Assembly (NCBI RefSeq): GCF_964204645.1
Contig: NW_027437461.1
Coordinates: 1 to 64,000, forward strand
Source: Tubulanus polymorphus
Lineage: Eukaryota > Animalia > Nemertea
Direction of reading: 5' to 3'
DNA: 64,000 nt
The translations under genes and the position numbers were made by a program. Each line of letters starts with the position of its first letter. Position 1 is the stretch's first letter. Below, in pieces: positions 14,445 through 52,817 of this stretch. The notes under the pieces were generated by a model that saw only the letters and a program-made list of their open reading frames with translations, did no database searches and was not told the origin of the DNA.

Positions 14445-14447
14445 ATT

Positions 14448-16898: not shown

Positions 16899-16969
16899 TC
16901 AATCAGATTTACACAATACATTATACAAGTTGTTCGGCCGTTTCTTCTAATACATCATTTGATTTCTAT

Positions 16970-27442: not shown

Positions 27443-27790
27443 TTACAGTTATATTCAGAACAGTTAACAAAGGCAAAGAAATTTATTGAATTATGGAATA
27501 ATGATCCAAATAATGAACAATACGTTGAGGAATTTGATATCAAGGATATGATTTAGATATTTCATGTCGGTTGTTTCTATTTACATAATGAATATATAAT
27601 TATGATTAACGCATGCGCATTGAGCAAAACCGCGCATGAATGCGCGGTTTGCTCAGTGGTATGATTTAGATATCAAGGAATCGAAACAACTTATCAAAAG
27701 CAGCGAGGAATGAAAAAGGATGACGTTGGTTGAAGAAATGGAAGAGGATTCTAAAATATTAACCAATTTAGTAAAAAATACGTATAATAA

Positions 27791-28437: not shown

Positions 28438-28797
28438 ATCAGTGGTTAGAAAGCTGGCAATTCTATTTGAGCTTTGTATGTATATAATACATAGCTTTTG
28501 CTTACTACTAAAACATATGTTGCCAAATATATCTTGTTTTCAATTCTAAAGAATTAATTAACTTCATCATAAAGAACATCTGTGCAGAAGTAATTAGTTT
28601 GGTCGAACGTGCGCCACGTCGGCAGTTAGAAATCAACTTTCACATACATAGTACGTATTGGATATTCTCTCTCAAAACACAGTTTACAGTTCTAAATCTA
28701 AATGTAAGTACCGTTTTTTGTAGTTATTATGAAGTAGGGAAACCTTTAAACATATTTAAGTACAGTAATTCATTTTCACGACATCTTTTAGATTAAA

Positions 28798-29528
28798 ATG
28801 GAATACAGAGATCAACCAGAAATTCCAAGCCAACCAACGGATGAGGAACCAGAAACGATAGATAGTGAAACTCAGGAATCAATAGAAATGGAGGATGAAA
28901 CTCTCGTAATTGACGAACAAACTTCACAAACATTACAAGAACATTTGGACTATCATCAAGAAATGGTGAAATACATAATAGTGATGTAATACATAATAAA
29001 CAATTACCGCGCGAACTACAATTACCAAAATTACCAGCAACGCGACTTAAATTGCTGTTGGGACTCAAAGAATCGAAAACTAAGAAAATGAGTGGAGAAG
29101 AGTTGAACGAGTTTTTAAAATCTAAATTAATCATTGACACAGAACATTTAAACTTTCCGGAAATACAAAGTGTAGAAGTTATTTCATTTGCTGAAATTAC
29201 TGATATCTTAAAAAAAAGTTATAAAACCATATTAAATAGAAAAGCAAATCACCTATGGGACCACATCATTTTCGGGGGTTATCTAAATATAGGGTTTACA
29301 ATGTTTGATAAAGAAACTGCGGGGATTTCTTGGGGGCTGTGGGTTAAAAAGAACATAGATATCAGTGCTGGTTTTGAAAGAAAACTGAGAAGAGTAGGTA
29401 GATTAATAAAATATGAAAAATTCAAAATATTAGGATTAGCATTTAGTGAAGTAGTAAGATATTTACCAGAAATTGAAGAAATGATTGGAAACAATCCAGA
29501 AATTAAAGAATTCTGGACAAAATTATAG
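28798..29528 (+). pseudogene. Accessory gene (acidic N-terminus plus helical domain), one frameshift
   Basis: ORFs 28798-28989 and 29052-29528 join by a frameshift near 28970; remnant homolog in copy 1 at ~17000. Confidence 0.6.
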
Positions 29529-29599
29529 ATTATAACACTGAAAGTCTTTGTAATATAGATATCAAAAATGTAATCTCGATTGTATATATCTGTTTTAAT

Positions 29600-29958
29600 A
29601 TTGTATTGTTTACTGTTAACTAAGTATTGCGCAATAACCGGTCCGATTGAACCGCTTTTCTATTGTTCTCCATTGTTCTATTATTGATCGTTGTTAATGG
29701 CGGCGGTTGTTCTGTATTGATTGTTTACTGTTAACTGTGTATTGCGCAATAACCGGTCCGATTGAACCGCTTTTCTATTGTTCTCCATTGTTCTACTATT
29801 GATCGTTGTTGACTGAAACAGCTGCTCAATATTGATTGGTTACAGTTCTATGTTTGAATGTTGTAGTTTACAGAATAAAAATATAACTGTGTATTGCGCA
29901 ATAACCGGTCCGATTGGACCGCATTTCTATTGTTCTCCATTGTTCTATTATCGATCGC
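29600..29958. repeat. Three imperfect ~115-150-bp repeats containing TATTGCGCAATA
   Basis: Palindromic cores at 29625, 29740 and 29892, each followed by ACCGGTCCGATTG(A/G)ACCG. Confidence 0.85.
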
Positions 29959-30369
29959 TAAAATTTACATAATAAATATATGTGTTCATGAAATAATATT
30001 TCCACCAGTCGTTTCTTTGAATTTATTTTCAGTTTTAGGATTTATTATCGAGAATCCGAAATGACTTATCTGGACAGTTATAGTTACTGCTCCTATAGAT
30101 GAACAATAGTAGTGAGATAATCTAAATCCTAATTTAAATAAAATATAATAAAAAAACAATAACTTCAACTAGCTAGTGAATTCTATTATATTTTTAATAT
30201 TTTCTTTTGGTAATTCTAATTGACATTAGATTGAATAGATTTTGAATAGATTTGAAAAGAAATTCTTTAACTTTAACTAACCTAGTCAATTTAGTATTAA
30301 CCTAAAGAGATACTAGTATCATTTGAAAAATACTTATAATATTTTTTTTGCTTTTTTTCTCTAATATAA

Positions 30370-30922
30370 ATGTCAAAGAAATCTAATAAGAATAGTATCG
30401 ATATTGAAAAGACATTAGATGATTTGGGTATAAGTGATAATAAAGATACAGTTGTAACTAATTGTGCTCAAGTTAATTGTAATATAGATTATGAATACTA
30501 TTTATATTGTAAGCATCATCTTGAACTATTGATTGCTAGCGGAAAGTGTAGAGAGTTTTTAACTAAGACTATTACTTTTCAAGAACTAGATGCTATGAAA
30601 CCCGAAAAAGTAATAAAATATTTTAAGATTTATGAAGAGGCAAGATTGGCCCGAAGTTAATACCAATTGATGATGAAAATAAATTATATAGTGATTTGAA
30701 AAATGACTACTTAGTTATGACTGAATTACAAAATGGGTTGGTTATGCTTCATTTCAATTAGGATCGGTTATGACATTAATTTCTACTGGTGTCATAACAT
30801 TTTCGAATATCAAACCTATGGAATATAAATCAGGTAAGAACGAAACAGATGACGCTGTACTACAACCAAACAGTGAAACAGAAAATGAATCAGAACAAAA
30901 ATTAACTAAAATAAATGAGTGA
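30370..30922 (+). pseudogene. Ortholog of 14830-15438, with internal deletion and frameshift
   Basis: Direct comparison with copy 1. Confidence 0.75.
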
Positions 30923-31283
30923 TGGCGTTAAGAAAAAGGTTAGATCTGAAAAACAAATTAAATGGGCAAGAGAATTAGGTAAAAGATCTGCAGAATTAAA
31001 AAAAGCTAAGAAAAAGAAATTAACTGATATGAATGAATCACAGAAATGATCTGATATTGATTCAAATAATAATCCATCTGATTCTTCTAATAGTGGAAGA
31101 AATAATTACTTATATATTACAATTGGGTTAATCACAATTATTATATTCTCTGGTGTAATATATAAATCAAAATTCAAATCTGATGATAAAGATGATTCCA
31201 ATGATAATAAACCTATCATACCAGAAAATAAGTCAAATCATAAAGTCATTGAAACTAAATCTAAATTATTATTAATGGATTAA
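30915..31283 (+). pseudogene. Ortholog of the single-TM protein 14448-14837, frameshifted
   Basis: Direct comparison with copy 1. Confidence 0.7.
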
Positions 31284-31289
31284 AATAAG

Positions 31290-32373
31290 ATGAAAAAAGA
31301 ACAATATTTAAGAGAGTTATATTATAACCCAGAGAGTGAAGTATCATATTCTAACGTTTCAGAATTATGGAATAAAATTAAATCTGATAATGAAAATAAA
31401 ATATAGTGAACTAAGATTATGGTTACAAAATCAACCAACATATCAAAGCCATAAGAAAATGGATAAAACTTATTTAACAAGAAAAGTTATGGTTTCATAT
31501 ATCGATCAACAATGGCAAGCTGATTTAATTGACATGAAGAACTTAGAAGAATACAACAAAGGATATTTCTGGATACTGAATGTTATAGACATATTCAGTC
31601 GATACGCATGGTCAATTCCAATCAAAAATAAAACTGGTATAGAAGTGACAAATGCTTTTAAATCTATATTTAAAGAAGCTATTCCAGATAAGATACAATT
31701 TGATGAAGGTAAGGAATTTTATAACAAATATTTTAAAAAACTATTATCTGATAACGATGTAGATTATTTTTCAACACATTCAGATAAAAAAGCATCTATT
31801 ATAGAAAGATTTAATAAAACATTGAAAACTAGGAATGTGGAAATATTTTCCTGCTAATGAAACATATAAATATATCGATGTGTGAGATGATTTAGTGAAA
31901 GGTTATAATAATTCTAAACATAGTTCTATAAATATGAAACCTATACAAGCTAGAAAAGAAGATAATTCAGAAATAGTTTGGAATAATTTATATGGAGCGT
32001 TTGTTACACATGATTTCGGCGAACCTAAATTTAAGATTGGACAACATGTAAGAATATCTAAATATAGAAAAACATTTTATAAAGGTTATACCCCTAATTT
32101 TACAGAAGAAATATTCAAGATAAAAAAGATAATATTAACTAAACCATTTGTTTATAAATTGGAAGATTTACAAGATGAAGAAATATTAGGTTATTTCTAT
32201 GAACAAGAATTATCACTTGTACCAAACCCAGATGAAATAGAATATAAAATAAAAAAGTATTGAAAACAAAAACTCTTAAAGGAAAAAAGTATTCTTTGGT
32301 GAAATATAAAGGATATGATGATAAATTTAATGAATGGATTTTATCTAGTAAAATTAAAAGAATAAATGAATAA
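31290..32373 (+). pseudogene. int: RVE integrase, copy 2 (frameshifts and a stop)
   Basis: Fragments 31336-31857 and 31895-32263 are near-identical to the copy 1 integrase. Confidence 0.9.
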
Positions 32374-32978
32374 AGATTTATTTATATTTGAACCGCATAA
32401 TATGTTAGTTACTGGAGTAACCAATTGTGGTAAAACACATTTCATATTAGATTTGTTAGAAACTATTTATAAGAATCATTTTGATAATATAATATTATTC
32501 TGTCCTACTTATGAAATGAATAAAACATATAATAGAGATATAGTTGAGATAAAAAAGTTTATTATATTAAATCCTAAAACAGGAAAAAGAAAATTTAGAT
32601 AATTGTATTAAAATAGCAATTGATACTTATAAAGGATCAAATACATTATTCATTGTAGATGATTGCGCAAATTTACATGATTCAAAAGTGAGAGAAAGTG
32701 AGTTATGTTATTTAGCTTTCTCTGGGAGACATTTCGGGATAACAATATGGGTTTTAAATCAAAAATATAATTCAATTGTTAAAGACTTTAGGGAGAATAT
32801 AAGATTTCTAGTTTTATTCTACAATAAAGATAGAAAATCTATGCAACAATCATTGGAAGAAAATCAAATTATACCAACTGAATTACATGATGAATATATG
32901 AATAAATTAAAGAATAATAAAGGTTCAAAATTATTACTGAGACTACAATTTCCCTATGAATATAAATTTATAAAATAA
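32366..32978 (+). pseudogene. Packaging ATPase, copy 2 (frameshift ~32585)
   Basis: Fragments 32366-32602 and 32688-32978. Confidence 0.9.
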
Positions 32979-33131
32979 CTATTTATATATCTATGTATTA
33001 GATACCCTAATACCTGATACCCCATTAGATACCCTAATACCTGATACCCTATTAGATACCCTATTAGATACCTTAAATACTTAAAACCCCCTTTTTTATT
33101 TACTATTATTTTATACAATTTTCAACCTTTA

Positions 33132-34025
33132 TTACTTTTTGAGTGTTAGATAATTACTTTCTGAATCACTTTCACTATCAGACCCTAACAAGCTATTCAA
33201 TTTCTCTACCGTATCTTCTTCTAATTCTTCATTATTTTTATACTTATTCTTCGCCATTTTTACCGCATCATCAATAGTTGTTTCATTGTTATGCTTATTC
33301 TTCCAATCAAATTTATCTTTATTATCAATGCGCTTTCCTGTATTTTCATTATTATCTTTATTAGTGTTTGCTCCTAATATTTCATTTACAGTGTTTGATC
33401 CTAATATTTCATTAGCATCGGTTAAATCTAATTCATCTTTATTAGGTGTTGCTAATAAAAAATCTTCATATAATTCTTTACCATTTACTTTTTTATTTGA
33501 AACAAACTTTGTAACATATCTAAATGGGTGTTCTATAAATTCTCTTAAACCAACACGTTCTATAACATTAGTAATATGTGAATTTGTATTCATATGTTTA
33601 TTCCAATTTGATGGAGCGTTTGAAAATTCACCTTTACAATAATCACAATAATTTCTATTTTTACTAGCATTTAATATTATTGCATTATTATATGTAGAAG
33701 GTATTACATTATTAGATGTAGCAGGTATTACATTATTAGATGTAGTAGGTATTACATTATTAGATGTAGTAGGTATTACATTATTAGATGTAGAAGGTAT
33801 TACATTATTAGATGTAGAAGGTATAACATTATTATCAATTACATTACTTAAATTATCAACAACTTCACTTTTATTATTATCGATTTCTATTAGTTTAGTT
33901 TTATAAATTTTGAAAATAGGATCAAATATCAAAGCTATATTACAAGGTTTTACATAATATAAACCATCATTATTTTCATGTGTATCGATGTATGGAATAT
34001 GTTTATATACTTTACCTCCTTCCAT
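33132..34025 (-). CDS. Repeat/zinc-finger protein, copy 2, 297 aa
   Basis: Intact ortholog of 11531-12580 with VIPSTSNN repeats. Confidence 0.8.
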   Translation of the reverse strand: MEGGKVYKHIPYIDTHENNDGLYYVKPCNIALIFDPIFKIYKTKLIEIDNNKSEVVDNLSNVIDNNVIPSTSNNVIPSTSNNVIPTTSNNVIPTTSNNVIPATSNNVIPSTYNNAIILNASKNRNYCDYCKGEFSNAPSNWNKHMNTNSHITNVIERVGLREFIEHPFRYVTKFVSNKKVNGKELYEDFLLATPNKDELDLTDANEILGSNTVNEILGANTNKDNNENTGKRIDNKDKFDWKNKHNNETTIDDAVKMAKNKYKNNEELEEDTVEKLNSLLGSDSESDSESNYLTLKK

Positions 34026-34057
34026 TTATTATATATATTTTTATTAAAGTTAAAATT

Positions 34058-35310
34058 TTAATACATAACACTATCTAATTGTGAATTTACAATATTTAAT
34101 TGTGCGTCAGATATAATATAAATGTGCATTTTAAAATTTTTGATTCCTTTATTTTTTGTCATGAATAATTGTATTCCATCTTTAGTGTTTTGTAGTTTTT
34201 TTCTAGAACCATGTAATGAATTATCCTCTGTTGTTCTAAAATCTAACCATAATGCATATTTATTACCGGTATAATAATCAATTTGATTAATATTACAATT
34301 TTCAGATGATTTCACTTTTTCATTCATAAAATGTTTTCTAATTTCTGGCCATTGATCTATCATTCTCATTCCTTGACAAAATATTTTATTTGCTATTCCT
34401 TCGATAGTTATTTCTACTTTTGTTATTTCAGGATTATAATAATTATCAACATTTATTGCGCCATTAGTATATGTTGCAATGGTAAAAAATATTAATATAC
34501 CTTTAATAGATCTTCTTGGTAAGTTAATATTCTCATTAATAATTTCATCATTTGCATTAATAGTTACAGTTTTAAATTTATCAATATAATCATATAATAA
34601 TGAAAATCCTTGATTGTATAAAGTTTGAATTATACTTGAAATATTTTCATCAGTTACTATTATCAGTCATATTCCAAACATATATTCGATAATTTATAAC
34701 TCATATCTTTATTAACGCTAGATATTACGATTTCATTAACAGGAGCAAATGTTATTTCGAATATAACGTCTTCTTGAATTGCGTATTTATATAAAGGTGC
34801 ATTGTTATTTATCAATTCAAAGTCTAATGGAATTTTATATTTGCTTCCATATATACTTTTTATAAATTTATCTACAGCATTAGTTAATATTGCATTATGT
34901 GCTTCTGATCTTAATTTATTTTGGTTTTCTGATTGGATTCCTTGAAATATCATATTATTTCTATTTTCTTTAGTTAACCATAAATCTTTATAATGCATGA
35001 ATAAATTATAATCATCTAATGAGAAAACTGTTTCTGGACCAATCTTTATAGTTAATTTTTTAATCAAATATCTTCCAACATTATCAACAACATAATTATT
35101 ATTATTACCGATTACTTTTATATCGGCTGATAAATAAATACTATTTGGAACATAAAAAGTATTTTGTGTTAATCGAGGGATTCTAACATATAAAGTTTCA
35201 TCGGGATTAATATTAGAAGGGTTATGAGTAATTATATGATGTGATCTTTCTGCTTTAATAGCATTAGATATTCTATGATTCTTAGAAGGATTTATGTAAC
35301 TTCCACTCAT
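34058..35310 (-). pseudogene. Major capsid protein, copy 2 (frameshift ~34660)
   Basis: Fragments 34663-35310 and 34058-34369 match the copy 1 MCP. Confidence 0.85.
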
Positions 35311-35330
35311 TTATTTAACAAAAAAATTAA

Positions 35331-37757
35331 TTATTTATTTTTTATCATATTCACTAACCCAAAAATAATTGCACTTACAACTGTAATTAAAAATAAAATA
35401 ATATGTTCAGCAGCAAAGTTAATAATGTTTCCTGCAGATTTCAATATAAAACCAACAATTGATGCAATAATTCCTGGTAAAGCTGCAGCAGATTTCTTTG
35501 ATAGTTCCCATAAATATTTTGCTAATTTCTTTAAACCATCCTTAACTTTATCTTGTATAGAATTATTATCATTCGGGGGTTTATCTGGTTTATTGGGAGT
35601 AGGAGTAGATTTCAAAGAATTTGATATTGCTAAACCAATTGTTGTGAATAACATAGTTACAGCCGTTAGAATTGAAAGAATTGTTATTCCTTCAAACTTA
35701 AATAATAATTTTATTCTATCTTTCAATGATATTCTAGAATCTGGTTTTATTAGATATCTTTTAAAATCATCTTTTAATCTATCAATATTATAATCATATG
35801 ATTTTAATAATAATTTAATTTCTTCTTTTTGTAATTCTATGTTATATTCTAAATCATCTTTTTCTTTTTCTAAACGTAATTCTTTTTGCCTATATTCTAT
35901 TTCATCAATAACTTTATTATCTCTATCTAATTTTAATTGTTCTATTTCTTTATTTTTATCAGTTAATTCTTTTTCTAAAAATCTAATTTTAAAATCTCTT
36001 ATTTCTTTTTCATGCGCAATTTTATCAGATGCATGTCTTATACTAATAATCTCTCTAATTGCTTTATCAGAAAATATATCTAAATCTTCTAATTCTTGAT
36101 CTGTTGCATCAAGTAATCCCTTCGGTAAAAGTTTTTCAGTTTGAACTTCTCTTGAATTAGGTCTACTAGTTTTGGAAGTTATATTCTGTTCAGAAGTTGT
36201 TTCTGGTTCTAAATTATTATCGATTGTTTCAAATAATTTATTAATTCTTTGTTTAAATACTCTTTCATTTTTAATAATTTCTTCTTGTGTTACATCTTCT
36301 GGTTCATTACTATTTCTTATTCTTTTAATTCTAGATAGGTCTAACTTAAGCAAAGTTGATTCTGCTAATATTTTGTTTTGTTTTTTATAAGAGATATCAA
36401 TATAATAATCATCTTTCAAACGATAATAATATTCACCATCTAAAAACTTTAATTCTTGTACTAAAAGTCTGGCGCCTCTGGCATTTATATTATATCCAGA
36501 TTCTTCAAATACATGTTTGAAATTATAAATATATTCATTATATTCTAAATTTTCCTTTAAAACTCTTCAGTTGGCGTCACCACGCCTCACGTGACAGCTT
36601 AAACAAAGAGACTAGGTCGTGGTCACGCCTCAAGTGACGGTTCCTATTACCCCCGATAGATGGCAAAGTAGTCAAGCCTGGCTGCTGACACTGAGTCAGT
36701 ATGCTCTATAGAGAGCCACTATGCTCTATAGAGAGCTCACAAGCGATTGTATATACTCTACACACACAGGCAGTATGTACTGGTTGTCGTCGGCAACCAG
36801 GAATGTGAGTGTTGTATCAGCGGTTTTGGACCATATTCCTTGTTTCGACATATACCATACCTAGCTCAATTATCGCTTAGAACATATCAATCTTTTAACT
36901 AAACAAACTTGCAAAATGCAATCTTATCACTAAATAAACTCTCAAATTAATGCCTAATTATCTGAAAACCCTGGGTCATCTGGGGGGTCAAGATGACCCC
37001 CAGATGACTCCCTGACACGTTTTATATCAAGGAAATGAGATATCTAGAGGATTCAGAGGATCAACATTGAGGAAACCCAAAGAAACCAAACAACTGAGAA
37101 GTGATTACGAAATCAGCGAAAATTGAGCGATTTTCACTTTTTTGAGACCCTGAGGATTTTTTGAAATTTCGGACCCCCCAAAGAATAAAATGACTGCCCA
37201 GGATGGTTTTCTTGTTGTCCTATGATATTATGAAAGAAAATAGCTATTTACTATTTTATTTGTATAAGATTCTGGCTTCTAAAGTGCAATACAAAGACGT
37301 TTTTGGTTGCGTGACCTCAACTTGACCTCAGGTTTTGGGGGGTCCTACCTTGCACCCGTAGGTCCAAACTTTTTATTACTAACATTTTCTGGTAGAGATA
37401 CCTATTAGCTTCATAACAGATATTGGTTTTAGGAGGGTCTCTACACTGGAAATGTATCTAACTTTACATAGAAATCATAAGACAATAAAGGCCAAAATTA
37501 ATTCCCCACATTGAATGGATAATGAAGAAATATATCCCCAGCGGATTTTCATTTTCAATAGGTATTCTCGATCTAGTTCTTCTATCAAATTCATCTGTTG
37601 ATGGGGCTTTAGAACCACTATCTGCTAAATTAGAATTATATGCTGATTCATTACCATCATCAATATTAGTTTCTGCATCATTTTAATCATCATCAATATA
37701 TCCTTCATTATTATTTCCCATTTCTCCCATTTCATAATCTTCTCCGCCTTCTGCCAT
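35331..37757 (-). pseudogene. Coiled-coil/TM protein, copy 2, interrupted by a ~1-kb insertion
   Basis: 5' part 37540-37757 (MAEGG...RRTRSRIP); 3' part 35331-36560. Confidence 0.8.
36562..37540. mobile_element. Unclassified ~1-kb insertion, GC-richer than the Polinton
   Basis: Absent from the copy 1 ortholog; local hairpins (GGGTCATC...GATGACCC); no clear TIR or TSD; boundaries approximate. Confidence 0.55.
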
Positions 37758-37773
37758 TTACATAATAAAAAAA

Positions 37774-39158
37774 TTAAAATTTAAAATATAATATTCCTCC
37801 GATTACAATTCCTATACAAGTTATAGCTAATTTAGTATTTTCATGGGATTTATTATCATCATTTAGTTTAACTATTTCATGTTGAATATTATCAGTTTTT
37901 ATATTTTCTGATGTATTGTAATCTTTTATTTTAGAATCATTATTTAATTTAATATTATTAGTTTTAGTTTCTGTTGATTGAATGTGTTTTTTATTTTTTT
38001 CACCTTCCATTAATTTTGGAGCAGTAATAATCTTTTTATTTATATCATTCAATCCAAATGAATTATTTATTGTTGCAGTTTTAATTAGATTATTATAACC
38101 AATTATATTTCCCATCTTTAATACTAAATCATTAGAAATAATCAATAGATTAGGGCCCATACAATAATTTAATCTAATATGTGATTTATCTTAATAATTT
38201 TGATATCTTACAATGTTTTCCGGAATCGATCTATTTTTATCATTATGAAGGGAATCTTCAAATAATACTTTAAATTGTTTCTGTGTATCAAATGATGTAT
38301 TCAAATTTCCAATTATTGGGGATCTTGTTTCAACTTGTGCACCTAGAATACATATCAAATAAGTTCTAATAGATTGATTTATTCTTTGTATACCAGCTTT
38401 AGTAAAACATTATTTTCTAAAATGAAATAAACCCAACCGTTATTGTTTTCTTGTTTCAAATTATCATAAAATTTCGGTAATTTATTGAAATTTAATGTTT
38501 CTAAATCCTTAGTTTCTATTTTACCATAACCTAATTTATTATTATAGATATTATAAAAACTATTAGATGGTATGGGAAGTGCACAATATTCTGCAATCTT
38601 TTTAGGGCAAGGAAGTGATCTTATTGTTCCAATTTTTGTTCTAAAATCAGAATTATTTATATCTATATTAAATTCATTACAAATTTTATAAAACTTTGAT
38701 AAATTAATATTATTATCTAATTCTTTAAAATATCTAGATCCTGGTAAAGCACACTCTAATTCATTTAATATTATTCTGATTTGAAAGTATGTATGAAATC
38801 TAAATAAACTTTGAATTAATTTATATTTAGAATTATTCAAATGATCATTCCAACTTATCCCACATCCTGTTGTTGCACAATAAACAGCAAAATTTAATTG
38901 GTTCTGCCAATACTTCATATTAGATTTTAATAACCATTGTTTTTCATCTTTCAATTTTTTAAAATCAATTAAATATACATGAAATATATTTTCCATCTTT
39001 GCATTAAAATTATTAGTTTCAGTAACATAAATTTCTAAATTAATTAATGAATCTAAAACTTCATTTCTATATATAATATCTTTATTAAAATCTATTGCTG
39101 GAATATTATATTTAATTGATTTGTTATATTGGAAAGCTTTTGGAAAACTATCTACCAT
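37774..39158 (-). pseudogene. Ortholog of the 433-aa membrane-anchored protein, frameshifted
   Basis: Fragments 38379-39158 and 37774-38160. Confidence 0.8.
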
Positions 39159-39174
39159 TTATATAATTAAAAAA

Positions 39175-39609
39175 TTAATAATTTATTAATTCTTTTAATA
39201 ATTTATCTTGTTCTTCAACTGTTATATGGCCATTTAAACTTATTATATAATCTAGTGTATTCTTTAATTTATTAATTTCTTTTATATTAGTTTTAATTTT
39301 TTCTTTATTACTTTTTATATTTAATTTTGAACTTATACCAGTTAAAACACTTGAACTTAATCCTAATACACCAATTGATATAGCTAAAGGTGTTAATGGA
39401 CTGAATATTGCTAAAAATGTTATTACAGAACTAATTGTAACCGAACCACTGGTAATAAGATAATATACAATTTTACTTTTTAGATATTTTTTCTTTTTTA
39501 TCTTTAAGTCACTTTCAAATTCTAATATTTGTTTTTCTAAATATATTTTTAATTTAGTTTTATTTATATCATGAGGAATAATATCAATACTATCAACTTT
39601 ATCTTCCAT
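39175..39609 (-). CDS. Two-TM protein, copy 2
   Basis: Intact ortholog of 6985-7419. Confidence 0.8.
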   Translation of the reverse strand: MEDKVDSIDIIPHDINKTKLKIYLEKQILEFESDLKIKKKKYLKSKIVYYLITSGSVTISSVITFLAIFSPLTPLAISIGVLGLSSSVLTGISSKLNIKSNKEKIKTNIKEINKLKNTLDYIISLNGHITVEEQDKLLKELINY

Positions 39610-39628
39610 TTATTTAGAAAAAAAATTA

Positions 39629-40051
39629 CTAATTAGTAAATTTATAAGCAACAAATATAACAATAACAGTTCCGCCTAAAATCCATATTATTTCATATTT
39701 CTTCTGTTCATTACTTGGGGTATATTAATCTGATAATTTAGGTTTGTATAGATGTAATTTTTCTTTATTTGTTACCGCATTATATAAACTCATTGCATCA
39801 TCAACTGATTGAAAATCTCAATGTGAAATCTTCTGATCATATAATTCTTTATTGATGTAATCCATATAGTTTTGTCTCTTTTCTCTATATTCTTCTGCAG
39901 CTTTATTGTATTTCTCTAACGCTAAGTTATGTCTTCTTTGTTCTCCTAATGAACTATTTTTATCAATATGTTTAAATAAATATCCACCACCAGTAAATGC
40001 CAAAGCGTTAACAATTGCCGATCCTATAATAGTTATAATTGCAGAAGCCAT
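39629..40051 (-). pseudogene. Ortholog of the 140-aa protein, with premature stops
   Basis: TGA at 39818-39820 and a further TAA at ~39727. Confidence 0.75.
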
Positions 40052-40075
40052 TTATTTAGCAAAAAAATTATGCAT

Positions 40076-40297
40076 TTATATGGGAGGAATATATTTTTGT
40101 TTTTCCAAATAATCAATAGTTAAATTAGATAAAATAACTGCTAATGTTAATTTTAAAATATTATTTATATCAAATCTATCAACATTAACACTTCCCATTT
40201 TAAATACTTTTTTTAATACCATTGAATAACCAACAGTTCCAACTGATAGTAATGCTCCATTATATAATCCAGTTATTATCCACTTATTATCACTCAT
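40076..40297 (-). CDS. Small hydrophobic protein, copy 2
   Basis: Ortholog of 6298-6519. Confidence 0.8.
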   Translation of the reverse strand: MSDNKWIITGLYNGALLSVGTVGYSMVLKKVFKMGSVNVDRFDINNILKLTLAVILSNLTIDYLEKQKYIPPI

Positions 40298-40653
40298 TTA
40301 TTTATCAAAAAATTACTATCATCAAAATATTTAGTTATCTTATTTATGATTAATTCGACATTTATTTCATTACTAGTTTCATTTGTATATATTTCAATTA
40401 TTATTTTTTTAATATCATCGATGATAAAATCTTCATCTAATTCATAAAATCTTAAAGATTCTCTAATTAAATTAGTAATCTTTTCTACATTTAAAGTTTC
40501 TTTATCTATTGTTTTTTCATACTCAAATGTTGTTTCATTAGAAAATGCAATATTTTTAATATGTGTAATTACATCATTAACGTTAAATTTCATTTCTTTC
40601 TCACGTTTAAAATCAAATCCAAAACATATGCTCGGTCCGACCGTTATATTCAT
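40294..40653 (-). CDS. Hypothetical protein, copy 2
   Basis: Ortholog of 5950-6297. Confidence 0.72.
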   Translation of the reverse strand: MNITVGPSICFGFDFKREKEMKFNVNDVITHIKNIAFSNETTFEYEKTIDKETLNVEKITNLIRESLRFYELDEDFIIDDIKKIIIEIYTNETSNEINVELIINKITKYFDDSNFLINK

Positions 40654-40669
40654 TTATATAGTGAAAAAA

Positions 40670-41423
40670 TTACTCTTTACATCTTATAACTAATTCATAA
40701 ATTACAGGGAAATTATTTAAATCAATTAAATATCCATTATGATTTCTTATTTCTAATTTAAAATTATTAAATTTAGGAATGCAAGGTTTGAAATCACATT
40801 CTGTTAAATTATAATTTATTTGCGTTCCAAATTGTTTAACATTTTAAATGGTAAAATATTTAATATACTAGAATTACAAGTTATATCTTTAGTTGCTTCA
40901 AATGTTTTTGTAGGATTAATTTAATTGCAATAAATATAAAAGTGTGTAAAAGTCATTATATTTGTATAAGTTTCAATACTTGAATAATGTCTATCCGGAA
41001 GTATTCCAAACAGTTTATCTAAAGGTTTTCTTACTAGAAATCTATGTTGTTCATTAGTTAACTTTATTCTTATTTTATTCGAACTATCACTTTTGATAAA
41101 TTTAATTTCAAATCGAGCAGCTGAGCCCATTTTTAAACGAGCTCTTTTATTAATTTCTTGCGCTAATGTTTCTAAATTATATAATCCTGGTTTTAGATAA
41201 AGATGAAACCATTTATTCAAATTTCTAACATAATTTTTAAAGCTAAATGATCAAGACTTTTATTCGATATATTATGAAAAGAATTACATAAACTTATATT
41301 AACTAATTTTAAATCAACACAATTCTTGAATTCTCTATCTAATTGTACTAGTAAATTATGTGATTTATAATTTGTAAGCCTTCTAGAATCAACAAATATT
41401 CTGTATTCTTTTAATTCTACCAT
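40670..41423 (-). pseudogene. Minor capsid protein, copy 2 (frameshifts)
   Basis: Fragments 41217-41423, 40921-41220 and the 3' part match copy 1. Confidence 0.8.
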
Positions 41424-41440
41424 TTATTTTACATATTTTC

Positions 41441-41782
41441 TTATTCGAAATCTATTTCATGGTGCCCTTTTTCATTCTTACCTTTGTATACGAAATAGAA
41501 ATCACCAGAACATAATTCTTCTAAATCTTCACTTGATAATCTATGAAATCTATCCGGTAAATATGTTCTGAATTTATGTGTATTTCCTTTTAATCCTTCA
41601 TATTCTAAGTGTATAACTAATTTATCTCCATATTTGTTAGTAACTGTATCAATATTTGTAATTAGATATTTCTTATGGATTGTTAATTCTGTTAACTTCT
41701 TAAATTTATAATCTACAGATTTTACATTTGAAGTATCTTTTATTCTATTTAAGAATTCACTGTGTGCTTGTTTACTCTCCAT
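41441..41782 (-). CDS. 113-aa conserved protein, copy 2
   Basis: Intact ortholog of 4816-5157. Confidence 0.78.
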   Translation of the reverse strand: MESKQAHSEFLNRIKDTSNVKSVDYKFKKLTELTIHKKYLITNIDTVTNKYGDKLVIHLEYEGLKGNTHKFRTYLPDRFHRLSSEDLEELCSGDFYFVYKGKNEKGHHEIDFE

Positions 41783-44059
41783 TTATTATACATATTTTTA
41801 TTAAAATTTGATTAACACGTTAGAATTCTTTTCATTATCTCGTTCTCTTTTGTTTCTTCTCTTTTAAATTTTAAGTATTCATCTAAATTACAACCATAAG
41901 CAACTGTATGAATTCCATCATCTAAAATATATCTTTTATCATCAAATGGGTTTAGACTTATCTTTTCAATTTCTTCAATAAACATTTCATGATCTTCAGA
42001 TCTTAAACATCTCATTTTATGTTTTCTAACTTCTTCATTGAATATACAATTGATGTAATCTTTGAAATGAATATTCTTTTCTACTACACTTTTGGTTATT
42101 CCTTTTAACTTTTTAGCTTCATGTTCTTTAGTTTTATATGAATACATTTTAGATCTAATACCTATGAACTCTATCATTTCTTCGCCACCTAATTCATCTT
42201 TGAATTTACCGGGAACTTTTTTATTATCATTGCTAAACAATTCATGATCTTTAGGATAATTACTGAAATCAAAATGATGTTTTAATGTTTTTAAATCATC
42301 AGTTATGTTATCAGTTTTTATCTTTAATATGTAACTGTCGGTATCAAAATATAATATTTCTATATGTTTTTCTCCAAAAGTGGTTGTAATACATTATAAT
42401 AGAATTCATACATTAGATATTTTGATAATTCTAAAACTGATGCGCCAACATAGATTGGTTTATTAAATTTCATTGATGTTCTTCTCATCTTAACTGCAGC
42501 TAAATTTTCATCAAATATTCTGTTACCAATGAACTTAGGATATGATTGTAAATGTCTAATTCTTTTACCATTACTGACTAACTCAATATCATTTCTATTT
42601 CTAATATTTTCACAAGTCTTACCATAGAATGCATTATTCATTAGTTTGAAGAAATCTTTCTCGAAATCAGTTTTAGCTTCAGTTCTCTGTTTGGTGTTAA
42701 AATCTATATATTTTTCTAACCACTTAGATTGACTGAATGAAATATATCTATGTACTTTTTTTAGGATCATTCCTTGTTTTAGATAAAACTTTAACATTCT
42801 ATAATGTACTACATAATTATATTTATCTTCCTGAGTTACCATTAACTTTTCTGTATGAATATGATTTTCAGGTTTAATTCTTTTTTGATAATTTGATAAT
42901 TCTTCATGTGTTACAGTTTTATGTTCGGGGCAGTATGCTAGATTTCTAGATTTAAATTTTTTATCTTCAGGATATTCTAAATCTACAACAAAGAAGTAAC
43001 CAGTATCTGAATCATCTGCAATATCTAGAATTCTTTTCTTCCAATCAAATTTATCATTATTTTCATTCTGTAAAACTTCAGTTAATTCAAATACTCCATA
43101 AGGTTGTGGTTCCATCATTGCCCAACCATACAAATTATTTGCATCTATATATAATAACTTATCCAGGGTTATCATTTACATTGAAATATCTATCACCTAA
43201 TACACCTGAAACTCCTCCTCTTATAGATTTTTCAAATAATAGTAATTGATCTATATTTGTTAACAAATCCATTTTTATATCTGTAAATTTTAATCCACAA
43301 TCCCATGTTAATACTGGTGATGAATAACAATGACATGGATTAATGTTAAAATATTTTAGGTTTACATCTCTAAACCTTTCGAATATATCGGTTAATAATA
43401 ATACATCTGATTTTAAATATATATCTACTAATTGCCCATGATTTTCTATTTTGAAATGATTCCAAATATTCAATGTTCTATTATAGACTTCATCTTTAAC
43501 ATATTCATTTTTTAATTCATCATAGAATTGTTCTTTCAATAATTCAGTTATGTTAAAATCATTATGATTTTTATAGAAAGAATATGGAATTGCTCCTTTA
43601 TATCTCATTAATTGAAAATCATCATTATTTGGGTAATATTCTTTTAATATCTTTAATTCATCATCAACTAATGATTTTGATAAGTTATCTAATGAACTAT
43701 TTAAAAATCTATATGAATCTATAAATCTTAAACACCCAAATTGGAATGATATATAATTCTCAGATGTTTTAGCTAACATTCTAAATTTATAAGTTGGTAT
43801 TTTATCTTTTGATCTATTTGAATTTAATCTGTCTATTTCATTATTAATTTCTTCTATTTTATGGCATAACTGTTTGATAAATAAATGTGCGTCATATCCT
43901 GATAGATTATGAAATATAACTGGTACAAAGTTAATTTTCTTAGCTTGTAAGTTACAATTCTCATGCGCAGCACCCCTAAACTTTCCATTCAAATGATTAT
44001 GGTCTCTTACTTTTTAGGGTTTCTGCTGCTTTCGCAGAAACCCTCTTGTAATTCTGTTG

Positions 44060-44101
<42 letters not shown>

Positions 44102-45386
44102 TTTCCCCTTTCCAGCCAAAAATTTTTCATAAAATGTAACTCCTCTCAGATTCGACTACTAGCAGCTTATAAACCTAATTTTCAATTATGAAAGAAATAT
44201 AACTCAGCGCCTGACCATTTCCAATTTGCGTATTATAATTGATTATGAATTAATCCCGCGTAATTATTTGGTCTAAACAGGAAATAAGAATGTCGCAAGA
44301 ATCATCATCCATTGATAAATGTACATCGTGAAAAGCCTGCAAATTACCCGACGACCTTGAGCTTCAAAATAAATCACGGATTCGGATTTATAAATCGGGG
44401 TTCGACCTACGACATCCATTCAATGTTTTCAGATTTCGTGCGCATGCGTCAATTTAGCTCGGACGCCATTTTCTTTATTTTACAACGTGCGACGCCACTC
44501 TACGTTACTTGCATTTTTACGACTTTGTTGTGTGTTTCTGTGACCAATCTTCAGAGAGGTATGTATATATAACGGTTAGGCCTAATATGATGTATTTTTC
44601 CACGTAATCTGACGACTGGTATTAAAAGCCGACCGGAATTCGTCTTGATCCGCGTGTTGTGGTAGCAGTCGGGTCTGGTTGGTGTGAGATCGATATCGAA
44701 TCCCGCATGACTTACGCATAGAAGTAGCTTTTAAAAGGCCAAATTTGGGCTAGGTGTTAAGGTTGACCCAATGCGTATGATTTAATAATAGTGTTTGTGG
44801 TATGGGTAGAAAATATTTAGGCCTATATAGACAGCAGCTTAAATATTGAATAATGGGATTTGAACTGCACTAGTGTGTGTGTGTCTGTGTGCGAGAGCAG
44901 GGAGCACTCCATCTCCCTGACCCTGTGACTTATGATTAAGCCACCCGATTCTGCTGAATGCGAACAAGTCATCAGGTTTTCGTGAATGTGAATAAATACT
45001 ATAAGAAGGGACTGCCAATTTTAATGAACACAGAAATATCTTAATTGAAATCGTATGTCAGCTAATTTCAAATTGAAGGCCTATTATACATAAATTACAG
45101 TACACTCCGCCCACTCATGTCAGACCATTTGGGAGTGTAAAAATGTATCCTGCTTTCTGGATCTGATTCAAGCTTAAGTCTACTGTTTGTATATTCAATC
45201 TACCTAGGCCCATAGGCCTAATTGTGCCTGCCTAATTATTGGGGAAATCGACAATGTCAGGTTCTTGAATTTCTCGACTGATGGCGCTAGTTAGAACTGG
45301 ATATTGGTACCTAAATCTGCCATGTTCTAGTTTATTTGCAATAAAAATCTGGCCTCTCAATTTTTTAGTAGGCAGTAGTTATTTTA

Positions 45387-45781
45387 CTGGATCTGGTCAC
45401 TGACTTCTGAACGCTATTTTGCAAAATATTGTCTCTAAATTGGCTGATTTACTACGCACATGCGCAAAGAGGTGCGCGGCTTAGATAATTGGAAGGAAGT
45501 GTGGAGAACAGAGTTTACCCGGACCAGTGAATTACTAGCCTAGCGTCTTCCTATTAGATCACAGAGCTCATTGAAAACCATCCGAATGTTTTAGCTACAT
45601 TTAGCCTCACCTAACCCTAACCCTATCCCTACTTGTGAAATCGAACCCTGTGGACCCTCTTCTCACCCTCTTGACACTAACCCTATCCAAACCCTTACCC
45701 TAAACCCAATAAAATGATTTAATTGTTACATAATAATTGGATTTGGCAAAATAGCGTTCAGAAGTCGGTGACCGGATCCAG
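45387..45781. mobile_element. MITE with ~36-bp TIRs and internal CCCTAA-like repeats
   Basis: CTGGATCTGGTCACTGACTTCTGAACGCTATTTTGC ... GCAAAATAGCGTTCAGAAGTCGGTGACCGGATCCAG. Confidence 0.75.
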
Positions 45782-46654
45782 GTTAAATATGCACTTCCTT
45801 TTTAGTAAGTGTATTTTACGTACATACATCATCACGTTTAATCCTTTAAGTATGATATCCTGGAAATCTGTTAGATTGGACAAAACGTCAAAAATTTTCC
45901 AAAAATCACAAATTTAGTGAAAAAAAATGCTCATTAAAAACTTGAAGCGAGAGATCTTTATTGCAAATCAACAAAACAAGGTGGATTTAGGTTCCAATTT
46001 CCGGTTCTGACTAGTGCCATCATACGAGTAATTCCAGAACTTGAATTTGTTGATATTTGTATTGGCATCATTCCTTTTCTAAAACGGAACCTGACGACCA
46101 ATTATTCAATTTCCTATTTATTTATTTTTTTAAACAAGACTCATCATGCAGGTATTCCCCGCAACAACAGGTTTCAGAGGGAAGACCACCCTTTTATTTT
46201 TGTTTCAACCCATCTTAAAATGAGCCACCAATCGGTAATCGGGCGAACCATAATAGTGTTCACTGCCTGTTTTAATACTCGTCGTTGCACATTTGTTCAG
46301 GATACTACGTCTAGCCTATGTGGGTTATAGGGTTTATTCCAAAAGTTTGCAAACAAAATCCAGTTAATTTGTTTAGTTTTGGAGACATTTTTGATGCATT
46401 GTTTTCAACACATTTTATTCAATTTTCTTCCAATCTTGCCATCAACCAAACCCAGCGGAGCTATCACAGCTGACAGGCTGCTTGTTCAACACACCATACC
46501 TATTTGTAGCAGGTGTCACCTATTGTTTCGAAATTTTAGAGAAAGTTCCTACAGGCTGATTAATAATGCTGTGATAATGTTTCTTTTGTGATAGGTCACA
46601 TACTTGATACTTGTTGATACTTGAAATAGGATATTGATCAGTACATTACTCATC

Positions 46655-49189
46655 ATGCCTAAAAGGAAAAGAAGAGCTGGTAGCTTTCAGCCGAAGAAGG
46701 TAAGACCCTCTTTTCATAGGCAAATGTTAATCTTCTAGTAAGAAGTATGTAGGCCTTTTTTCCGAGTAAAAAATTCATTAAACTGTTCATCACATGTGTT
46801 AGCTGCGCAATATTTTGGTGCCTGATTTTGGTATTTTATCAGAAAAAACCATATCAGTAAATCATAAACCAGTTGCTTAGAGGGTGTGTAACTGACCAGT
46901 GTCGTATCATCCCTGGTTCTTGTTGAGATAATTATAAGCTATTGAATTGAATTGAACTCATTAGAAAATTCTACGAACGTATAGTGAATGAATTTTTTTT
47001 CTATTTTCAGAAGGTGGAGGTGGTTGGAGTTCCCTCAGCCCTAACTGGACAAAACAGAGAGATGAAAAAAGGATCAATGGAAAAAAATTATGAAAAATCT
47101 CAAGATGAAGACTACAGAAGAGTTGAAAATGAAATCTTAAATGAAAACCTAAAAAACGCTCAAAATGAAAACTTTAACGAAACGCAAAAAGAAAACTCTG
47201 ATAACAATCAAAACAAGAAGTATGAAGTGAAAATCAATGAAAACTTTGAACCAAAAACTAATGAGAACTATGAATTGAATGCAAATGAAAAAGATGAAAT
47301 GAAAATGACTGAAAAACATGGAATGAAAATGAATGAAAAATATGAAATGCATATGAATGGAAACTATGATTTGAAAACAAATGAAAAAGATGAAATGAAA
47401 ATGACTGAAAAACATGAAATGAATATTAATGAGATCTATGATCAGACTATGAATCAAAATTGTGGAACTAATTCGAATGAAGATATGACAAAAAACAAAG
47501 TTGAGACAATTGAAGTGAAATCAGTTTTTTGTGACTTCAATCATGACAACTGTGATACGATTATGCATGACAACTATGATAAGACTAAACAAGGCAACTA
47601 TGATAAGGCTATATATGGAATCTGTGAAAAGATTACACTTGACAACTGTGATAAGATTCAACATGATAACGCTGGTCACAATATACATGAAACCTCATCG
47701 AAAATGAAAGCTGACTCATCTATTCAACCAATTTCGAGTATGATTTCGTGTAGAGATTGTGATGGCAATTTTGGTAACAGTGAGTCATGTTTAAGTGCTG
47801 AGAATATGAGATGTTCATCAATTCATGGAAATTTCCACCAGGGTCATCCAAAATACGATATTCATTCAGGTAAGCAATGTAACAAATGCATTAGCTGCAA
47901 TGATTCATGCATCAAATAAAGCTGTAATAAACTGGATGCCTCATGATATTGATTCAGTATTGAATATTGGAAATGATTTATACGCAACATTGACTAATAT
48001 GAATACAATAACAAATATGTATTTATTGATCAGTGAGCTACCAACTGCTGTTGAGATTGGAAATTCCATTTATAATGTGACTGTTGGATCCCCTCAAGTT
48101 GCTATATCTGAATTATCTGATGAAATGAGAGCTGGAAATTTTGGAATTATCAGTGAACTACATGAATGTTTGCACAATAATCTGCTTAATTACGACACAT
48201 GCTTTATAACATTTGCTGGAAATACATTTTGTGTTTTAAAACAGGATGACATGTACTGGGTATTTGATTCACATTCGAGAGATGCATCAGGAATGATGAC
48301 CGCTGATGGACATGCTGTATTAGTAAGGTACTCTTGTGTTAATTGTATTGTCAAACATTGTCAGAATCTTGCAGCTTCAATGAATCAGAGGCAACCAATA
48401 CAGTATGAAATTACAGTGGCTTCTATCAACCATGAAATTGAAACTACTGTAGAGAATAGCATTATCGAAGCAACGACTACATACTCTCCAAACTACCAAC
48501 AAACAAGTAGTGAAGATGAACTGCCCTATACAAACCCAAAAGTAGATGAATGCGATGTAATTGTTACTAGTGAATCCGTGCAGCATGATGATTTAATTTA
48601 CAACCCACTAGAAAAAGGTCAGTGCAAAACATTATGCTCTATTCTAGGTATTCATTGTCGACCCTCAACTCTCGGATATGAATGTATGCCCAAATATGAT
48701 GGACAACTCTACTCTCCATGTAATACGCAGAAAATTAAAGGCGATGGAAGCTGTTTTTTTCGGGCAATTTCATATTCAATCTGTGGAACTGAGCAATATC
48801 ATCGGGCTATACGCACCGAAGTTTTAAAGCACATGCGGCAGAATTCCGACAAATTCCAACCACATCTGAGAAATCCACAACTTACTATAAATGAGTATAT
48901 TGATGAATCCCGTATGAAATATACAGGTACTTGGGTGACAGAGGTTGAAATTCTTGCAACAGCTGATTTACTGCATGCTGATATATATACATTTGTAGGC
49001 AATGGTTGGTTACGATTCGCTGGTTCTACTTTCAGTGCACCAAATCGTGTGTGTGAATTAAATGGCAACATTTATTTGAAAAATTGCAGAGGTGTACACT
49101 ATGAAGTTGTGTCATGTGTGAAACAATCTGAGGAATGTATTTGCTCTTGGTGTGGCAAGCGACAAAATACTGAAAAAACTAATGAGTAA
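46655..49189 (+). pseudogene. Spliced Helentron gene: NLS, low-complexity region, herpes-tegument-type (C76-like) deubiquitinase and OTU protease
   Basis: Exon 1 46655-46699 (MPKRKRRAGSFQPKK), GTAAGA...TTTTCAG phase-0 intron, exon 2 from 47011. GNFHQG...GKQC/NALAA...FDSHSRD; OTU GDGSCFFRAIS...W...HYEVV. Frameshift at ~47880. Confidence 0.8.
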
Positions 49190-52100
49190 ATACAGTTTAT
49201 AAACTGTATTTACTCATTAGAAAATGAGGTTTTTAATGTTATCGCTTTTATGGTTATTCAGGCAGATTTGTTTATAGGGGAGTTGTGTGCTGGTGCAAAT
49301 GCAGTAAATGTTTCGATTATCAGAGTCTCCTATTTGGATGGGTTTTGTAATGTTATAATATGATAATGTCACAAGTTGGTAATAGGTTTATGTTGTTTAA
49401 TTCTGTCCACTTGTACACATTTGAATTTCGATGTTGTTTGCTTATCATGACACATGTGTAGGAGGTTATGGTACTGGGTTGTGTAAATGTGTATGGGAGG
49501 TTATAATATTTCGTTCTGTAGAGTCTCCTCTGCGAATATATGTCAGAGGGTGACGCGTATTAATGAAGCAGGGTGTTGTGTAGTGGTGTGTATGTAGTGT
49601 ATGTTTTGATTTCGATATGTGGAAACATCTATGTGGATGTATATAGGAGGGTCAGGTGTGTTACAATAGTGGGGTTTTGTATATACAGGCATGTGTAGTT
49701 ATGATTTTAATTTTATGTGACCTTTATGTGAATTCATTTATGAGTGACAGGGTTTATATTTTAGTGTTTTTGAAGATTGTGTGACAATAGTAAATGGGTA
49801 AATTGATGTACCTAGTTTCTAGGGAATGAAACAGTGTGTATTTGGAATTGATATGTTGTTAAGTAACAGTGGTATAAGCTGGGGAAAGTATGTAGATAGT
49901 TGTAATGGGGCATGAATGATATTTGACATTGTGATTGATATGTAGCAATGTAACAGTAAGATATGGTGGTGGATGTATATATCTAGCTGTCATGGGGATG
50001 AAGCAGTCACTGTGTGGAATGGATGTGTTGGAATGTAACAGCTATGTACAGTGTACAAAATGAGTATTATTTCATGCTGGGGGATATTGATGCGTTGTTG
50101 CCATAGGTTTTGATGTGATAACACTGTACATATATTACCACCATTAATATTACTAAACACATATGTACAGTCTTATGAATGATTATGTATGGAACTGTAT
50201 GAAGGATTGTATTGAATATATAGGAAATGGTAATTGATCATGTAGCAATCATTTGTGGCGATGTATGTATTTTGTATTGTGCAGTGAGATAGTATTCAGA
50301 AATGTTTGTAATCAATGTTGTGGGATGAAATATAAATAAAAGGTGGATGGTATGATGATATGTGTTGTGTATAATTATTGTTTCCAAATTTGGTGCTTAT
50401 CCCCATATGCTTGGCCAAGTTCTGATGTCATTTACTACATTGTCCCTGGCAAGGATTTGAGCTTGATGGCATGGCGACTGCCACAGTACAATGGGGTTCC
50501 TGCAGTGCTGCTGTGGCAATTGAGGATTCCACTCATAGCTAGTGACAATCCGCCAGGTTGCTAGTAAGTAGTTCGTCATTCGCCAGTGCGACATATGAAA
50601 GTTAGGCAGAAACCCGTTATCGCTGCTATGCAGCTATATTTTATCTTTATAATTAAATATCTTTTCACAATAATAACATTTATCTGCAAACGCAAATTCT
50701 TCTTTATCTTCTTCTGTCATTATAATTTCTATATTTGTATTCAATAATTTACTAAATCTTATTTCATATTCAATTAATAAGTCACAAAAATGATTTATAA
50801 CATTTTCATTTCTATAATTATGATATTCACTTTCAATTAGTTCTGGATAATCAGATTTAATATATAACCCGAAAGCCGCAGCTGATTGATGAATCTTTTT
50901 AATAGTATTTGTTTTTGGTGGTTCTTCAGAATAATCATTTTCATTAGAATTTAATTTCTTTCTCTTATAATATATTTCTTTTCTATCTTGATCAGTTAAT
51001 TCTTTATTTAATGATTCAAAATCTCCATATATAACAAATGGAACTTTATTTTTGTAATCATATTTTTTGAATTCCAATATTTTATCTTTTTCATTTGGTA
51101 AAACTAATTTACAATAATCATGATTTTCACATAATTGTTTATGATTTAATAATGCACTTTCATTACTGAATCTATGTAAACATTTTCTACAAAGATATAT
51201 TTTATTATCAAAATCATTTTCTGATTTAAAATAAATCAATTCTTTTAATCCACATATAATGATTTTCATAATATAATATATCTATAACATCGTTTGAATC
51301 GTAATCTTTTGATAGGTATAAAGGTTCTAATGTATAATGTTTTATATTGTTACCTTTTGTATTTGGTAATTTGATTAACTCAAATACATTTATTCTTAAA
51401 TTATTATCTCTTTCTATTTTTGGGATGTTTTTAATTATAACAGGATACTTATCTATCTTATAATTATTTTCAAATGGTTTATAATGAATTAATCTAAAAC
51501 TATGTGTAATATCTTCTGTTGGATGTAAACAACTTATTATAGCCCATAGAAAACATTTATCATCAAAATTTTGTACATTTATTACAGCATTAGTTTAAAT
51601 GGTAGTTTAATATAACTCCATGCTTCAATATCTGGTTCTTTATAATATAATACATTATTTTCATCAATTGGTTTTGATTTAGTTAACTTATTATATTTTG
51701 TGTTATAAACATGTAAAGTCATAAATATTATTTCATCAAATATTAAACCTGATCCTTCAAAATATTTCTCTCCTATCTTAGTTGTTACTTCATTATAACA
51801 TTTATCTAATTTATCATCTATATGTTGTTTAGATATAATATGTTGTGAATGAGAATTTATATTATATATTGGTTTATCTTCAGATTTTATAAACTTAATT
51901 ACTATAAATTAATATACTAATTTTAGGATATTAAACATCTGTAATTATTTTTATTATTTCTTTCATATTTTCTAAATGTTTTTTATTTTCTTCTAATGTT
52001 TTTCCTTTATGAAATTTAAACTCAATAGCTGCTGGACCAATATCACTTTTAAATGCTTCGGTTATCTCTATATCTTTTTTATTATCTAATGAATTAATAT

Positions 52101-52362
52101 AATTTCTTACATCTTCCATGTATGGTCTTTTATTGTTTAATTTATTTCTTATTCTTTTAATTGTCTTCTGTTTCTTATCATTATCTTCATCAAAATAATC
52201 TTCACCTAAAATATCATTATTCTTATTTCTAATATGACTTTTAGATTTTAAATGTTCTTTATAATATCTTTTATCACTGAATGATTGATTACATGTATCA
52301 CATTTGTATGTTTCTTTTTCATTCTTTAATTCATCTAATTTAGTTTCTAATATATCATCTTT

Positions 52363-52817
52363 ATATTCTAGTTTCAATTTATTCTCTAAATGTGTTTTAG
52401 TTTTATTGTGTCTTGCTTTTTGGGATTTATCTATATTGATATTACATGTTGGACAGTAGTACTTATTTGCTTCCATTTTAATACTAAATTTTTTATTAAA
52501 ATTGATTTTAGAAGTTATTCATTTATATTTTATTCATATATATGAATATTTTAAGAGTAATAGGGAAAAATCTTGTTTCATATCAAAGGTTGAAAGGGCT
52601 AGTGAGTAAAAAATGAAAAATATGAAAATAATAATAATTTCTATTTGAATTAGGAGTGAAACTCATATAAAATGAAAAATAAATTCGAGTGTGCGAGAAT
52701 TATTTTTCATTTTATATGAGTTTCGCTACTAATTCAAATAGAAATTGTTATTATTTTCATATTTTTCATTTTTTATGAGCTCGACCTTTCGAATGAAACA
52801 AGATATTCCCTATTACT
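52363..52817. repeat. Right TIR of copy 2, with terminal palindrome 52556-52817
   Basis: Reverse complement of 26981-27442, with an 8-nt deletion near the end. Confidence 0.92.

Follow-up and report, generated by a model that had tools for sequence, protein, structure and literature searches.

The window analysed here, the whole 64,000-nucleotide stretch of contig NW_027437461.1 of Tubulanus polymorphus, contains two oppositely oriented Polinton/Maverick copies that are 87-93% identical to each other, each with a gene for a protein-primed family B DNA polymerase (pPolB). Motif C of the copy 1 polymerase is interrupted by an intein, whereas in copy 2 the same site is empty and spelled with silently different codons. 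We find that this insertion site is a hotspot of variation across relatives and not in intein-free control clusters. For the window pair itself, we put at about even odds the explanation that the four silent changes of copy 2 represent one of several versions of the site, which would have arisen from cutting by the intein's nuclease followed by repair from differently spelled copies. The features on which the argument turns are the following.

47..3193, + strand: copy 1 pPolB N-extein, ending in ...YFD (open reading frame, ORF, 47-3394; PF03175, E 1e-16)
3194..4256, + strand: intein in motif C (YFD|TDS), 1063 bp, with Ser start and Lys-Asn end (LAGLIDADG_3, E 4e-8; Hom_end)
4257..4787, + strand: copy 1 pPolB C-extein
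4257..4265, + strand: copy 1 junction codons ACA GAT TCT (+1..+9), from the sequence
42334..42342, - strand: copy 2 junction codons ACC GAC AGT, with the empty insertion point between 42343 and 42342

The clearest marks at the site come from related families rather than from the window, and they bear out the suggestion of the initial annotation that the homing site is special. The P0011 cluster of pPolB proteins has 136 members; the 15 listed comprise seven filled, six empty and two not covering the site. All seven filled members read LHCHYMD|intein|TDSF, while the empty ones read QCQYFD|TDAM (three), QLHYTD|CDSM (two) or QYHYGD|TDAM (one), so that the junction takes three forms, with the catalytic motif changed from TDS to TDA or CDS. 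At ten positions between -7 and +44, no residue is common to the seven filled and the six empty members listed, so that at the protein level a flank is shared by filled members and absent from empty ones, a separation that looks like co-conversion. Among the empty members, the difference at the site (0.187) exceeds that of the flanks (0.026; 10 non-independent pairs), and this excess looks like escape from cutting. In all 10 intein-free clusters with at least three covering members, by comparison, the site difference was 0-0.017 and always below that of the flanks, and a scan of 119 empty matches returned 113 TDS, one TDA, one ADS and four without a call.

At the nucleotide level, 99 relative loci were examined (90 with an empty site, one filled and eight without a call), and one of the empty loci, L002, carries a sharply bounded patch. 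Its close relatives L001 and L003 differ from each other at 4 of 3732 nucleotides; L002 is separated from L001 by 20 differences in 4051 nucleotides and from L003 by 17 in 3663, and the same 15 of these fall within a 52-bp tract from -43 to +8. The tract turns YFD|TDS into YLD|TDA. L001, L002 and L003 are all empty, and near the site it is L002 that is derived when measured against L004 (9 versus 2 differences in 30 nucleotides). Of the 63 pairs with at least 82% identity, only the two with L002 were extreme (P below 1e-26), in a test whose window was defined from the L002 tract; the next close pairs, two with L062, gave P of 0.004-0.007. L002 and L001 also differ by a second small cluster of three differences, at +428 to +459 from the site. 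The one filled locus, L029 (3070-4089; its intein has two in-frame stops), and the empty L051 are related elements that read TCA and AGC at the same Ser; they are too diverged to reveal a tract.

Within the window, copy 1 reads TTT GAT up to 3193, then the intein, then ACA GAT TCT TAC, and copy 2 reads TTT GAT|ACC GAC AGT TAC. The description of copy 2 as an intein-free allele with a silently different site thus stands, with four silent differences over the three junction codons followed by ten identical codons, as do the amino acid differences reported upstream (EISKLLMYQFYYNI versus ELSKYLMYEFYYNV). The neighbouring stretch described as identical is so as protein but not as DNA, 11 of 30 codons from 2996 being silently different. 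Over the gene, 1232 codons can be compared, a further 9 at gaps being excluded; 142 of the 1232 carry silent differences and 79 encode another residue, and 6.7% of nucleotides differ. Four or more changes in nine nucleotides have a probability of 0.002 under independence, but changes in this gene are clumped (dispersion 1.5 versus 0.87). Three of 1230 three-codon windows, the junction included, contain four silent changes, and upstream of the site silent divergence is raised over the following segment.

42343..42506, - strand (copy 1 3029-3193): raised silent divergence upstream of the site, 18 of 55 codons, within the top 1.9% of windows

Silent divergence in the gene peaks over the 58 codons that end at +9 (21 of 58), a window picked post hoc. 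The sliding-window comparison proposed in the initial annotation therefore leaves the junction patch as real and modestly above the gene-wide background, though not unique, and the window pair alone gives modest support to a special site.

This brings up the possibility of ordinary mosaic divergence, in which recombining subfamilies would have placed a run of three silent codons beside the intein site by chance. The gene has six runs of at least three silent codons where 1.6 are expected; the junction is one of them, and two longer ones lie downstream (five codons at 4386 and four at 4752). A second switch of Ser codon class occurs in the pPolB pair at 2222, two further ones turn up among 97 pairs of Ser codons in six other genes, and symmetric windows of 20-40 codons around the site are unremarkable, being equalled by 12-24% of windows. 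Against this, the site stands out sharply in L002 and the P0011 family and is quiet in the 10 control clusters, and both the junction and the final intein codons are strongly variable among reads. We consider mosaic divergence unlikely. The class switch as something special in itself was rejected, since AGY and TCN codons are mixed in intein-free clades.

Reads from organism A (run X5, about 12% of which was read; all counts are unphased) place the two window alleles within a larger population of copies; run X1 (share 0.07; 22 short records) was left out. Read depth is about 490-790 over the exteins and about 80-260 over the intein, so that roughly one third of the copies or fewer would be filled, with mapping bias affecting this figure. 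Some 250 reads cross the empty joint. About 116 of them (113 + 3) are copy-1-like at +4..+9, and 45 + 86 carry GAC AG, including 40-44 with the exact ACC GAC AG of copy 2 and 81 with an inferred ACT; Leu at -2 appears in three empty-joint reads and one contig, and at least four site versions are present among the empty reads. On the 3' side of the intein, 140 empty reads stay matched across +1..+9, with clipping at 4265 in 198. Roughly 110 reads lie over the intein end, and 72 of these leave copy 1 after 4246 with tails that disagree among themselves (agreement 0.8), while 16 continue, of which at most about five resemble copy 1.

4247..4256, + strand: final intein codons, highly variable among filled copies (read depth falling from about 110 to 16; several substitution sets)

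In this short segment multi-base changes separate the filled copies, while 4195-4246 is conserved. Just beyond it, four substitutions are seen: 4259 A>T (17 reads), 4262 T>C (12), 4263 T>A (17) and 4264 C>G (14). By matching depths, the same changes are found in contigs that start inside the intein (X2 record 5; X3 records 9 and 15). These contigs have fewer than 31 bases on the extein side, below our bridging rule, and the reads are taken to be intein-anchored by inference. Contigs and reads of this kind carry ACT GAC AG, nearly identical to the copy 2 version, whereas the exact ACC GAC AG was seen in none of the intein-anchored contigs and, in these unphased reads, occurred in empties only. 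The copy 1 site is hence common in empty copies and uncommon in filled ones, and GAC AG appears to occur in both states, which counts against both of the strict readings with which the initial annotation had explained the junction. That annotation had also taken independent assortment of junction and intein as a sign against its proposal, and such independence is partly what we see, GAC AG being present in intein-anchored contigs and 12-17 reads.

The first of these readings holds that the flanks of copy 1 arrived together with the intein from a divergent donor by co-conversion and that copy 2 retains the original site of the family. Co-conversion has precedent in the available text on group I introns (PMC4059233), and it would fit the ten positions of the P0011 cluster at which filled and empty members separate; the 55 raised codons upstream in the window pair, along with a fall in contig depth on copy 1 over 3035-3208, point the same way. 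As an account of the nine-nucleotide patch, however, it is already weakened. Over +1..+9, the window family has no flank that is shared by filled copies and absent from empty ones: the copy 1 sequence is common among empties, and few of the reads spanning the intein end resemble it. Nor do outgroups favour it, as at +4..+8 copy 2 departs from two of three and is derived against L001 and L004. Three outgroups did not polarize the upstream stretch either way (12 versus 10 differences between the copies, with two ties), and C at 3172 is found in only 25 of 616 reads. We therefore set aside the notion of the copy 1 junction as a foreign tract and regard co-conversion as decidedly improbable for this pair.

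The second holds that ACC GAC AGT is uncuttable and that copy 2 is still empty for this reason. The TCT/AGT switch does silently alter two non-wobble bases, the nine junction bases of copy 2 are an exact match to those of the distant L005, and the exact version was confined to empty joints, as described. A near-identical site in intein-anchored contigs and reads speaks against strict resistance, however, and staying empty needs no resistance, because about half of the empties retain a copy-1-like site; we think strict resistance very unlikely. Both processes nevertheless left clear marks in related families, as flank differences fixed between filled and empty members and as altered empty sites, even if neither holds strictly for the window pair. 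Least probable of all is loss of the intein by recombination of filled copies with an empty copy of another lineage, without cutting, which would likewise leave a short tract extending to either side of the site, such as L002 has, and would suit the decayed intein of copy 1, but leaves the repeated amino acid changes in the catalytic motif of empties unexplained.

We favour instead the explanation by nuclease cutting and repair among several site versions. An intact intein's nuclease would cut empty copies in trans during co-replication of elements. If a filled copy served for the repair, homing would result, with some flank carried along; if an uncut empty copy did, the outcome would be a short patch without the intein. 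Poorly cut versions, whether through a Ser TCN/AGY switch, Ser to Ala or Thr to Cys, would be favoured until the nuclease adapts, and because of such adaptation no version would stay tied to the filled or the empty state. What is observed in support is the intein polymorphism itself, the several site versions in both states, the sharp 52-bp tract and the concentration of motif changes in intein-bearing clades; cutting in trans, the route of repair and selection on cutting efficiency are proposed on this basis. The nine bases of copy 2 are probably best read as one such version. More tentatively, and with somewhat less confidence than in the explanation for copy 2, we suggest that an intein from giant-virus polymerases may be actively homing among Polintons in eukaryotic (likely animal) genomes and driving an arms race. 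Empty copies would escape through silent Ser switches and even through alterations of the catalytic motif C, from TDS to TDA or CDS, and cassettes of about 50 bp would carry the escape sites from one element lineage to another.

Several observations weigh against this explanation. The junction signal of the window pair is weak by itself (4-6% of six-codon windows equal it), silent changes are clumped across the whole gene, and the read counts, besides being unphased, are biased to copy-1-like copies. Six other close clusters of two to six members have no site difference. A filled relative, P0130, has TDA, which can thus be no absolute block, and the intein-free P0369 cluster is fixed for a D-ADS motif C (three of three covering members). 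L002 is a single metagenome contig and could be an assembly mosaic, and its own cluster of three is without any intein seen. Finally, the junction Ser is AGY in 54 and TCN in 35 of the 90 loci, and both are common in intein-free clades.

The inserted segment has the sequence hallmarks of an intein, and nuclease motifs are present in it.

3624..3644, + strand: first LAGLIDADG-type motif, GFFMGDG, also in the P0001 intein and in Mimivirus PolB P0087
3960..3980, + strand: second LAGLIDADG-type motif, GFYAADG, from the sequence

The splicing blocks are present by sequence (Ser/Cys start, terminal Asn, and Thr/Ser/Cys at +1). A Lys where the penultimate His would be expected is usual in this intein family (65 of 117). 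TIGR01445 matches copy 1 weakly (E 0.048) and three intact relatives with E 8e-5 to 9e-8, and PF14890 is a precomputed annotation on P0001. Insertion is precise and coexists with empty alleles: 113 reads skip exactly 1063 bp, and copy 2 is empty. The reading frame of the copy 1 intein is not intact, with a frameshift near 3380-3395, while those of the P0001 and P0011 inteins are; the copy 1 intein is 57% and 64% identical to the intact P0001 intein. Its relatives are motif-C inteins of RNA-primed-type PolB (PF00136), Mimivirus included, and the seven Polinton inteins form one side of a branch with a Shimodaira-Hasegawa-like approximate likelihood-ratio support of 99 in a quick tree of 119 rows (117 pattern-cut from 129 proteins, some with wrong starts, and two derived from DNA). 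The P0026 intein is 40-46% identical to the other Polinton inteins; because it is related to them while its exteins have no BLAST match to theirs, the intein has moved between pPolB classes, a transfer between Polinton groups. Viral contigs gave no match for the intein piece nor for the junction DNA pattern.

The Polinton inteins resemble the motif-C inteins of giant-virus PolB (Mimivirus P0087), the site of which we take to be the one called pol-c, in the YxD|TDS site, the Ser start, the Asn end and the two LAGLIDADG-type motifs, at 37-43% identity. They differ in that the host is the protein-primed pPolB of an integrating Polinton and in their position on one side of the branch. The accessible text of Green et al. 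(PMC5784728) contains no mention of 'polinton'. Nuclease domains within Polinton pPolB have been described (Jeong et al., 10.1101/2023.08.22.554363; PMC11161782), and the latter source, as far as its available text goes, suggests in one line that such insertions derive from intein invasions; the nucleases in these reports, in the portions available, are HNH or VSR without a described splicing domain, and 'intein' goes unmentioned in the available part of Jeong et al., whereas here a full intein occurs alongside empty alleles. Beyond that one-line suggestion, neither a splicing intein in Polinton pPolB nor escape versions at such an intein site turned up in partly available full-text literature that included PMC12220804, PMC5718144, PMC5784728, PMC5371798, PMC10710043, PMC4059233 and 10.1101/2025.01.02.630785, most subscription papers, Repbase notes and supplements lying outside this scope.

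The processes themselves are already known. Exon diversity is raised beside mobile group I introns of fungi (Repar and Warnecke, PMC5378118), and co-conversion tracts accompany such introns (PMC4059233); in the text available from both, variation centred on the homing site is explained by mutagenic repair or co-conversion. The present case differs in that an intein resides in a multicopy nuclear element and that the patches lie in empty alleles and alter residues of the catalytic motif. For the proposed repair step there is experimental precedent in the WHO elements of Torulaspora (Coughlan et al., PMC7282813), where, according to the portion available, a resistant homologue serves as the template for repairing a sensitive allele cut by a LAGLIDADG nuclease, and the resulting tract is asymmetric, with 5-14 bp on one side and 106-306 bp on the other; WHO elements differ in that they have no protein splicing and replace the end of a gene, and resistance is experimental there but inferred here. 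The host element and escape at the amino acid level would be new. If the hosts are animals, endogenous Polintons would be an exception to the absence of inteins from metazoan genomes stated in the available part of a review (PMC8529194). The field has yet to explain why empty alleles persist alongside a homing intein, and a multicopy family supplies numerous filled and empty alleles within a single genome, among them naturally occurring candidates for escape. It is also a natural model for resistance to gene drives at a site considered too conserved for mutation, and homing from Polinton to Polinton would imply that copies meet and recombine.

The elements of the window are recognizable as Polintons from pPolB (PF03175), an RVE integrase (PF00665) and a packaging ATPase (PF04665), matched with Pfam, and from terminal inverted repeats of the form AG...CT, with AGCAAC flanking copy 2 on both sides. 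The other ORFs scanned gave no Pfam match to capsid proteins or protease, no fold search having been made.

1..18126, + strand: Polinton copy 1, its left end beyond the window, with integrase and A32 packaging ATPase
26981..52817, - strand: Polinton copy 2, with terminal inverted repeats AGTAATAG...CTATTACT and the 6-bp target duplication AGCAAC
41812..44015, - strand: 3' part of copy 2 pPolB, intein-free and frameshifted
50639..52165, - strand: 5' part of copy 2 pPolB, frameshifted
44016..50638, no strand assigned: 6.6-kb insertion splitting copy 2 pPolB, with approximate limits and T-rich ends

Both pPolB copies are broken, by frameshifts and in copy 2 also by the insertion, and neither is able to act now. 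The distance of about 38 kb given by the initial annotation between donor and target is correct; since both have decayed and belong to a family with many further copies, their proximity carries little meaning, and we rejected the adjacency of the two copies as important. The insertion in copy 2 contains an ORF for an OTU-like protease (47825-49189; PF02338, E 3e-11; weak herpes tegument match), and its left end is repeated at 22049-22414 and 23894-24257. The Polinton terminal repeats (17940-18126, 26978-27252 and 52556-52817) are themselves imperfect palindromes, and a retroelement with a reverse transcriptase (PF00078) lies at 58864-62050 on the - strand.
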